A stretch of 541 nucleotides of DNA. Source: a phage. The notes beneath the pieces are model-generated. The model was not told where the DNA came from, searched no databases, and saw only the letters and a list, made by a program, of their open reading frames with translations. Below are positions 1 to 541 of this stretch, piece by piece (position 1 is the stretch's first letter; each line of letters begins with the position of its first letter). Position numbers and translations under genes: made by a program. Where the stretch lies: the sequence record EF517045.1; one strand, written 5' to 3'.

Positions 1-292
1 TACTGTGGAGGCAGGACGAGATGAGATGGCTGTAGGCTCTCACGCTAAGGGTTACAACCACAACTCTATCGGCGTCTGCCTTGTTGGTGGTATCAACGAT
101 AAAGGTAAGTTCGACGCTAACTTTACGCCAGCCCAAATGCAATCCCTTCGCTCACTGCTTGTCACACTGCTGGCTAAGTACGAAGGCGCTGTGCTTCGCG
201 CCCATCATGAGATAGCGCCGAAGGCTTGCCCTTCGTTCGACCTTAAGCGTTGGTGGGAGAAGAACGAACTGGTCACTTCTGATCGTGGATAA
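1..292 (+). CDS. 3.5: T7-type lysozyme / N-acetylmuramoyl-L-alanine amidase (gp3.5), C-terminal part; 5' end lies upstream of the window
   Basis: ORF track 5..292 (95 aa); the frame is open back to position 2, so the GTG at 5 is an internal Val codon, not a start. The translation ...EAGRDEMAVGSHAKGYNHNSIGVCLVGG...LRAHHEIAPKACPSFDLKRWWEKNELVTSDRG is near-identical to my recollection of the C-terminal two thirds of phage T7 lysozyme (Amidase_2/PGRP fold). The AHHE..PKAC segment carries the equivalents of zinc ligand His122 (203-205), catalytic Lys128 (221-223) and zinc ligand Cys130 (227-229). TAA stop at 290-292. Confidence 0.93.
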   Translation, partial: TVEAGRDEMAVGSHAKGYNHNSIGVCLVGGINDKGKFDANFTPAQMQSLRSLLVTLLAKYEGAVLRAHHEIAPKACPSFDLKRWWEKNELVTSDRG

Positions 293-293
293 T

Positions 294-316
294 TAATTGA
301 ACTCACTAAAGGGAGA
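294..316 (+). promoter_or_regulatory. T7 RNA polymerase promoter, class II (phi3.8-type); predicted transcription start at G311
   Basis: TAATTGAACTCACTAAAGGGAGA aligns without gaps to the 23-nt T7 consensus TAATACGACTCACTATAGGGAGA (-17 to +6), with mismatches only at -13, -12, -11 and -2. The -9 to -3 core CTCACTA and the +1 to +6 GGGAGA are intact. It starts 2 nt after the gene 3.5 stop, and +1 is 45 nt upstream of the next ATG, which fits the phi3.8 arrangement in T7 as I recall it. Confidence 0.85.
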
Positions 317-343: not shown

Positions 344-349
344 GAAGGT
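344..349 (+). promoter_or_regulatory. Shine-Dalgarno / ribosome-binding site for gene 3.8
   Basis: GAAGGT at 344-349, followed by a 6-nt spacer (CAAATA) and the ATG at 356-358; purine-rich and complementary to the 16S rRNA 3' end at canonical spacing. Confidence 0.6.
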
Positions 350-355
350 CAAATA

Positions 356-541
356 ATGCGCAAGTCTTATAAACAATTCTATAAGGCTTCGAGGAGACAT
401 ATCCAAGTGTGAAAGGCAGCCAATGGACCTATACCAAAAGGTTATTATATAGACCACATTGACGGCAATCCACTCAACGACGCCTTAGACAATCTCCATC
501 TGGCTCTCCCAAAAGAAAACTCATGGAATATGAAGACTCCA
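356..541 (+). pseudogene. 3.8: Gene 3.8 homologue (small HNH-endonuclease-like protein) interrupted by an in-frame TGA at 410-412; HNH motif still encoded downstream in the same frame; 3' end beyond the window
   Basis: ATG 356 with SD, then MRKSYKQFYKASRRHIQV followed by TGA (410-412). The same frame continues without further stops to position 541 as KAANGPIPKGYYIDHIDGNPLNDALDNLHLALPKENSWNMKTP, which contains the HNH signature (His 455-457 in DHIDGN, Asn 467-469, NL 491-496, EN 515-520). Both other + frames hit stops soon after 410. HNH_3-type phage proteins normally have Trp-Glu where this sequence has stop-Lys. The pseudogene call assumes the TGA is real and not a sequencing error. Confidence 0.6.

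Follow-up and report, generated by a model that had tools for sequence, protein, structure and literature searches.

An opal codon replaces Trp19 of gene 3.8 in a phage T7 sequence differing from the reference by GC→AT transitions

A stretch of phage DNA, 541 nucleotides of the record EF517045.1 read on one strand and called here the window, carries an opal codon at the nineteenth position of gene 3.8 of phage T7. Judged from the sequence, this stop codon is real and inactivates the gene. The explanation that we favour, with a probability of about 0.8, is a mutagen-induced null allele in a laboratory derivative of T7, tolerated under the relaxed selection of laboratory growth. That the phage was a laboratory line, and which mutagen it met, are points that we infer by analogy with mutagenised T7 genomes.

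The gene 3.8 frame and its interruption

The window aligns without gaps to positions 10870-11410 of phage T7 with 97.8% identity (window position i is T7 position 10869+i of the reference NC_001604), and about 50 T7 records are its joint best match. In NC_001604 the corresponding stretch holds the 3'-terminal 97 codons of gene 3.5, then the promoter phi3.8, then codons 1-62 of gene 3.8, a gene annotated there as an HNH endonuclease (Table 1). Gene 3.8 is thereby placed behind an intact phi3.8 and the 3' end of gene 3.5, gene 4 being outside the window, and no difference from T7 is found between 284 and 344. When T7 gene 3.8 (NP_041974.1) is compared with the window, the locus, the flanks, the promoter and the reading frame are the same; the T7 gene differs in having TGG at codon 19, GGAGGT as its Shine-Dalgarno (SD) sequence and none of the changes E20K, P12S and R48H. 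Lysozyme clones of the pLysS/pLysE type, the insert of which presumably ends at T7 11296, were considered as a source of the sequence and ruled out on this limit, the window running to 11410.

Table 1. Features of the window and the basis of their assignment
Feature	Position	Strand	Basis
Gene 3.5, 3' part (lysozyme / N-acetylmuramoyl-L-alanine amidase)	1..292	+	NC_001604 annotation 10706-11161; TAA stop 290-292
T7 RNA polymerase promoter phi3.8, TAATTGAACTCACTAAAGGGAGA	294..316	+	+1 at 311 = T7 11180 annotation; same as reference T7
Shine-Dalgarno of gene 3.8, GAAGGT (T7: GGAGGT)	344..349	+	G→A at 345
Truncated gene 3.8 frame: ATG (356-358), 18 sense codons, opal stop	356..412	+	Translation and comparison with T7
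Opal TGA in place of Trp19 (TGG)	410..412	+	G→A at 412, 5'-GG context
AAG in place of GAG (E20K)	413..415	+	G→A at 413; residue variable in family
Remainder of gene 3.8 frame, codons 20-62, predicted to be now untranslated	413..541	+	HNH_3 core including D33-H34 still encoded

Positions 407-415 read GTG TGA AAG in frame with the ATG, and the frame translates as MRKSYKQFYKASRRHIQV, a stop, and then KAANGPIPKGYYIDHIDGNPL..., with recognisable gp3.8 sequence after the stop. At the same site T7 has TGG GAG (Trp19-Glu20), and the ungapped alignment with NC_001604 bears out the proposal of an earlier note on this DNA that two adjacent G→A transitions had occurred there: those at 412 and 413 convert Trp19 into a stop (hereafter W19stop) and give E20K. 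We then set the stop to Trp and compared the resulting read-through translation with the HNH_3 profile (PF13392). It matched over residues 14-56 with 54.4 bits, as compared with a cut-off of 24.8. Since the frame downstream reaches this score, the TGA is not a chance stop in an arbitrary frame. Most of the match, including the invariant D33-H34 pair, lies downstream of the stop, and the earlier note was right in having the frame end at codon 19 before the HNH motif; an uninterrupted frame through the catalytic Asp-His and the conserved Asn is absent. No in-frame ATG, GTG or TTG follows the stop before Met59, which is itself past D33-H34. The predicted product is therefore a peptide of 18 residues devoid of nuclease, an outcome that the note had also foreseen. 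With its frame broken at codon 19 and the next start at Met59, the allele is thus best described as a null allele or pseudogene of the HNH_3 family and not as a working member of it, and we infer that neither full-length gp3.8 nor an HNH endonuclease is made from it.

The stop is accompanied by other changes in the same gene. The ribosome binding site, which the earlier note had called a good one, turned out to be mutated (GGAGGT to GAAGGT), and the predicted energy of its duplex with the 3' end of 16S rRNA drops from −10.0 kcal/mol in T7 to −3.5 kcal/mol in the window. Gene 3.8 is therefore hit at translation initiation besides the stop. The gene 3.8 part differs from T7 at 7 of 186 nt; in addition to the two transitions described above, these are P12S (389), R48H (498) and three synonymous changes (397, 427 and 529). 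This extra damage, namely the weak SD, P12S and R48H, is consistent with an absence of purifying selection.

To place these changes in the family, we used an alignment of 28 gp3.8 homologues, in which D33, H34, N46, L49, A50 and N58 are invariant. H34 is the residue that was mutated for inactivating the gp3.8 enzyme (bioRxiv 10.1101/2025.09.07.674715). At position 19, Trp is found in 26 of the 28 homologues, Leu in one, Tyr in one and a stop in none. Position 20 is variable (E in 13, V in 6, L in 6, A in 2 and Y in 1), meaning that the Trp-Glu pair described as conserved in the earlier note is conserved for its Trp and not for its Glu. Arg48, inside the NLRLA motif, is present in all 27 homologues aligned at that column, and R48H, as read from this alignment, is likely to be a second inactivating hit in the gp3.8 frame. 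If H15, W19, D33, H34, N46, R48 and N58 are taken as the core set, two are lost in the window (W19 to a stop and R48 to His), and the codons of the others are present. A search of PDB sequences with gp3.8 returned spurious matches only, to a designed repeat protein and to antibody Fab chains.

We also looked for other carriers of the allele, as the earlier note had suggested for the reference homologues, and the same TGA was found neither in the 28 homologues nor in the database records searched. Megablast of window positions 390-440 against the phage collection gave no carrier of the TGA allele, and the exact 29-mer across TGAAAG had no match in IMG/VR, in GTDB genomes or in JGI metagenomes. 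A separate observation concerns two proteins in the databases, 87 and 82 amino acids long, that start with MWEA, the GTG of codon 18 having been called as a start, and whose C-terminal parts diverge into unrelated sequence. Both are possibly further gene 3.8 alleles, frameshifted or engineered, in public assemblies.

Substitution spectrum of the window and of mutagenised T7 lines

Relative to reference T7, the window has 12 substitutions (95, 212, 214, 283, 345, 389, 397, 412, 413, 427, 498 and 529), that is 2.2% of its 541 nt. All 12 are GC→AT changes, nine of which read as G→A and three as C→T in the coding strand; across the 541 nt, AT→GC transitions, transversions and indels relative to NC_001604 are absent. 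For comparison, the natural relative NC-A shows 18 mixed differences from T7 in the same region, of which 6 are GC→AT, and at this rate 12 GC→AT changes out of 12 would be expected with P ~2e-6. Eight of the changes fall in the gene 3.8 segment (197 nt) and four in gene 3.5 (292 nt); taken as a test for relaxed selection on gene 3.8, this difference is suggestive at most and not significant (P=0.06). In gene 3.5, the change at 95 converts codon 87 from GAC to AAC (Asp to Asn), that at 283 is a synonymous C→T, and those at 212 and 214, both G→A, lie in codon 126 (Met = 1) and convert GTG into ATA (Val to Ile). Codon 126 belongs to the AHHEVAPKAC segment, which we take to hold zinc ligands of T7 lysozyme; the Val to Ile change is conservative and was presumably tolerated.

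We then considered the nucleotides adjacent to the mutated G residues. In 8 of 12 cases the 5' neighbour is G, as compared with the 25% expected from the composition of the region (P=0.0027). The 3' neighbours (A 4, T 4, G 2, C 2) show no bias relative to a near-uniform background. No mutated G has a 5' A (0/12), while the context found in the mutagenised isolates K and P described below predicts about 36% (P=0.004; multinomial P ~0.01; post hoc and on 12 sites). This last result leaves room for a different mutagen, though it may be due to chance.

As a comparison set we used the T7 isolates K, K115, P and P82 (AY264775-AY264778), for which the differences from reference T7 were tabulated genome-wide. 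These are the nitrosoguanidine lineages of Bull et al. 2003, which came out of the Hillis experimental phylogeny. K (AY264775) has 409 substitutions, 94.6% of which are GC→AT, and P (AY264777) has 302, with 94.7% GC→AT. In the region of the window, K has 8 changes and P has 7 (compare with 12 in the window); genome-wide, the mean per 541-nt interval is 5.6 for K (maximum 13) and 4.1 for P (maximum 10). Intervals with at least 12 changes make up 2.1% of those of K, and the 12 changes of the window are thus inside the range of K. Like the window, the four isolates have a T7 backbone, with 90-95% of changes being GC→AT and a divergence of about 1-1.5% in the region. The likeness extends to the type of stop. 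K and P have five independent nonsense mutations between them, three in K (genes 4.7, 5.7 and 5.9) and two in P (genes 0.4 and 4.2). Each of the five is a TGG→TGA change in a small, non-essential gene, and W19stop in the window is likewise TGG→TGA in a non-essential gene.

Two differences have to be set against this likeness. Gene 3.8 is intact in K, K115, P and P82, which carry missense changes only, and about 40% of the mutated G residues in the four isolates have a 5' A, in contrast with none of 12 in the window. In K and P about 82% of the mutated G have a 5' purine, and AG was mutated almost as often as GG. Clustering of mutations on the same strand (comutation) gave a weak signal or none in a runs test (P=0.027 for isolate K and 0.41 for isolate P).

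Shared changes were few: the window has at most one in common with any of the four isolates, a synonymous C→T at 283 (T7 11152) that is found in K and K115 and not in P or P82. It may be inherited from a common ancestor within the experimental phylogeny, or the site may be a hotspot that was hit more than once. The chance of one shared site with K is about 0.41, and the shared site is therefore uninformative on kinship with K.

Two side observations were made on these records. Isolate P (AY264777) has two G→A changes within phi3.8, at T7 11180 (+1) and 11184 (+5), a promoter that is unchanged in the window; isolate P and the line of the window may have lowered gene 3.8 expression by different routes. 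Moreover, AY264774, the 'wild-type' of the Bull laboratory, has TG→GT relative to NC_001604 at T7 11061-11062 (window 192-193, in gene 3.5), where the window, K and P all have the NC_001604 version. This looks like a discrepancy of that record only.

Origin of the opal codon

SN1 methylating agents convert G, above all where a purine precedes it, into O6-methylguanine, which pairs with T and so gives G→A. If the opal codon is mutagen-induced, as we favour, a laboratory derivative of T7 would have been grown under a G:C→A:T mutagen. The agent would most likely be an SN1 alkylating one, for instance N-methyl-N'-nitro-N-nitrosoguanidine, as in the T7 lineages of Hillis and Bull. An O6-alkylated G with a 5' G would have paired with T at replication, changing the TGG of Trp19 into TGA; the second G of TGG is a favoured alkylation site, and Trp to opal would thus be the preferred path to a stop. 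The GGG run at 411-413 would have been hit twice, the change of the neighbouring G giving E20K. Ribosomes starting from the weakened SD and the ATG at 356 would then release the peptide of 18 residues. As gene 3.8 is not needed on ordinary laboratory hosts, the null allele would not have been purged by selection, and it could have been fixed during serial passage by drift, bottlenecks or hitch-hiking.

Published work on T7 points in the same direction. GC→AT changes are dominant after mutagenesis of T7 with nitrosoguanidine or hydroxylamine (PMC6042481). According to the summary in PMC5850294, Cunningham et al. 1997 recorded 11 nonsense codons, all of them GC→AT, in T7 adapted with nitrosoguanidine, and to that extent the two cases are alike, dispensable genes being lost through GC→AT nonsense codons under this mutagen. 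After GC→AT mutagenesis, a nonsense codon of this type in a dispensable gene of laboratory T7 is routine, and the phenomenon is already described for this phage.

Other origins must be weighed against this one. The TGA might be an artefact of a deaminated template, of low coverage or of base calling, the phage itself having TGG; deamination damage indeed yields exactly the C→T and G→A calls that we see. We nevertheless judge this improbable, as 12 consensus errors in 541 nt would be very high for an assembled sequence, and as deamination has no reason to favour a G that follows a G. In addition, both the spectrum and the TGG→TGA change are the same as those of mutagenised T7 genomes that were sequenced independently.

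A spectrum made of GC→AT changes only would also be expected from hypermutation by a cytosine deaminase. This might be a laboratory tool, such as a fusion to T7 RNA polymerase or a base editor, or else a bacterial enzyme acting as toxin or in defence, and T7 RNA polymerase does transcribe the region, starting at phi3.8. In the deaminases that have been characterised, the choice of C depends on the base before it, TC and CC being common targets; seen from the mutated G, the bias would be for A or G as its 3' neighbour. In the window the bias is instead on the 5' side of the G, as for alkylation, and the 3' side is near background. Moreover, with a deaminase tethered to the polymerase, C→T should predominate on the non-template (+) strand, where we count three C→T for nine G→A. 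A deaminase is for these reasons very improbable.

Just as improbable, in our opinion, is the idea that the gene is attenuated and not dead, tRNA-Trp reading through the UGA-A in a leaky or programmed way to give some full-length gp3.8. UGA is the leakiest stop codon of E. coli and tRNA-Trp is its near-cognate reader, and beyond the TGA no further stop interrupts the frame within the window, the HNH_3 score being that given above. However, the stop is conserved in no relative (0 of the 28 homologues), and no stable structure follows it: the folding energy of 410-500 is −11.6 kcal/mol, with z = 0.0 relative to shuffled sequences (the wild-type T7 equivalent has z = −0.39). Initiation is also weakened by the change in the SD, any product would bear R48H, and there is no sign of selection for such expression.

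We consider natural decay still less probable, that is, a wild T7-like phage losing a selfish and dispensable homing-endonuclease gene by spontaneous mutation. This was the cause proposed in the earlier note, and it has some appeal: relatives of gene 3.8 are annotated as homing endonucleases in the databases, the gene is dispensable, and its distribution is patchy, 180 phage records matching the gene 3.8 part, even with a more sensitive search, as compared with 368 matching the window. The sequence itself argues otherwise. The window is T7 with 12 GC→AT changes and nothing else, a pattern that the mixed spectrum of NC-A would produce only with the very low probability given above; gene 3.5, which is no selfish element, bears the same kind of changes; and the stop is absent from natural homologues. 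Being one of 12 GC→AT changes such as mutagenised T7 accumulates, W19stop is ordinary and is not a sign of natural gene decay. Finally, we give hardly any credence to the proposal that the hypermutation was a process acting on T7 DNA inside the cell, such as an alkylating or deaminating host defence likened to the APOBEC editing of retroviruses, the opal codon being one of its footprints.

Loss of gene 3.8 in T7 and its meaning

A mutagen-induced null allele of gene 3.8 would not be the only case in which T7 grows without this gene. Gene 3.8 is non-essential and was largely replaced by a foreign gene without detectable effect (PMC6042481). T7 lacking 2.8, 7.7 and 3.8 forms normal plaques and is outcompeted only on GAPS4 hosts; the same 2025 preprint credits gp3.8 with weakening the GAPS4 defence, an effect for which catalysis is not needed (bioRxiv 10.1101/2025.09.07.674715). 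Like the phage of the window, T7_130L, OL964741, JB14-37 and T7-delta-3HE are viable laboratory T7 without a working gp3.8, and the lesions of T7_130L and OL964741 arose independently. In T7_130L (MZ375257), from heat-adapted clones, Ser56 is changed from TCA to the ochre codon TAA by a C→A transversion; OL964741 has a deletion of gene 3.8 that leaves only its first 41 nt; and JB14-37 has T3 gene 1.2 in place of 3.8. The lesions of these four phages are thus a transversion, deletions and engineered replacements, whereas that of the window is a GC→AT opal codon at Trp19.

The biological weight of the finding is very small: it is one more case of T7 doing without gene 3.8. It also illustrates the main way in which GC→AT mutagens knock out dispensable genes, the change of Trp codons (TGG) into opal codons (TGA). 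For annotation, gene 3.8 should be treated here as a pseudogene, and the divergence of this genome from T7 should neither count as natural variation nor serve for inferring selection on homing endonucleases. If the claim of the GAPS4 preprint is true, a phage carrying W19stop should compete worse on GAPS4 hosts, and this existing allele would provide a simple test of that claim.
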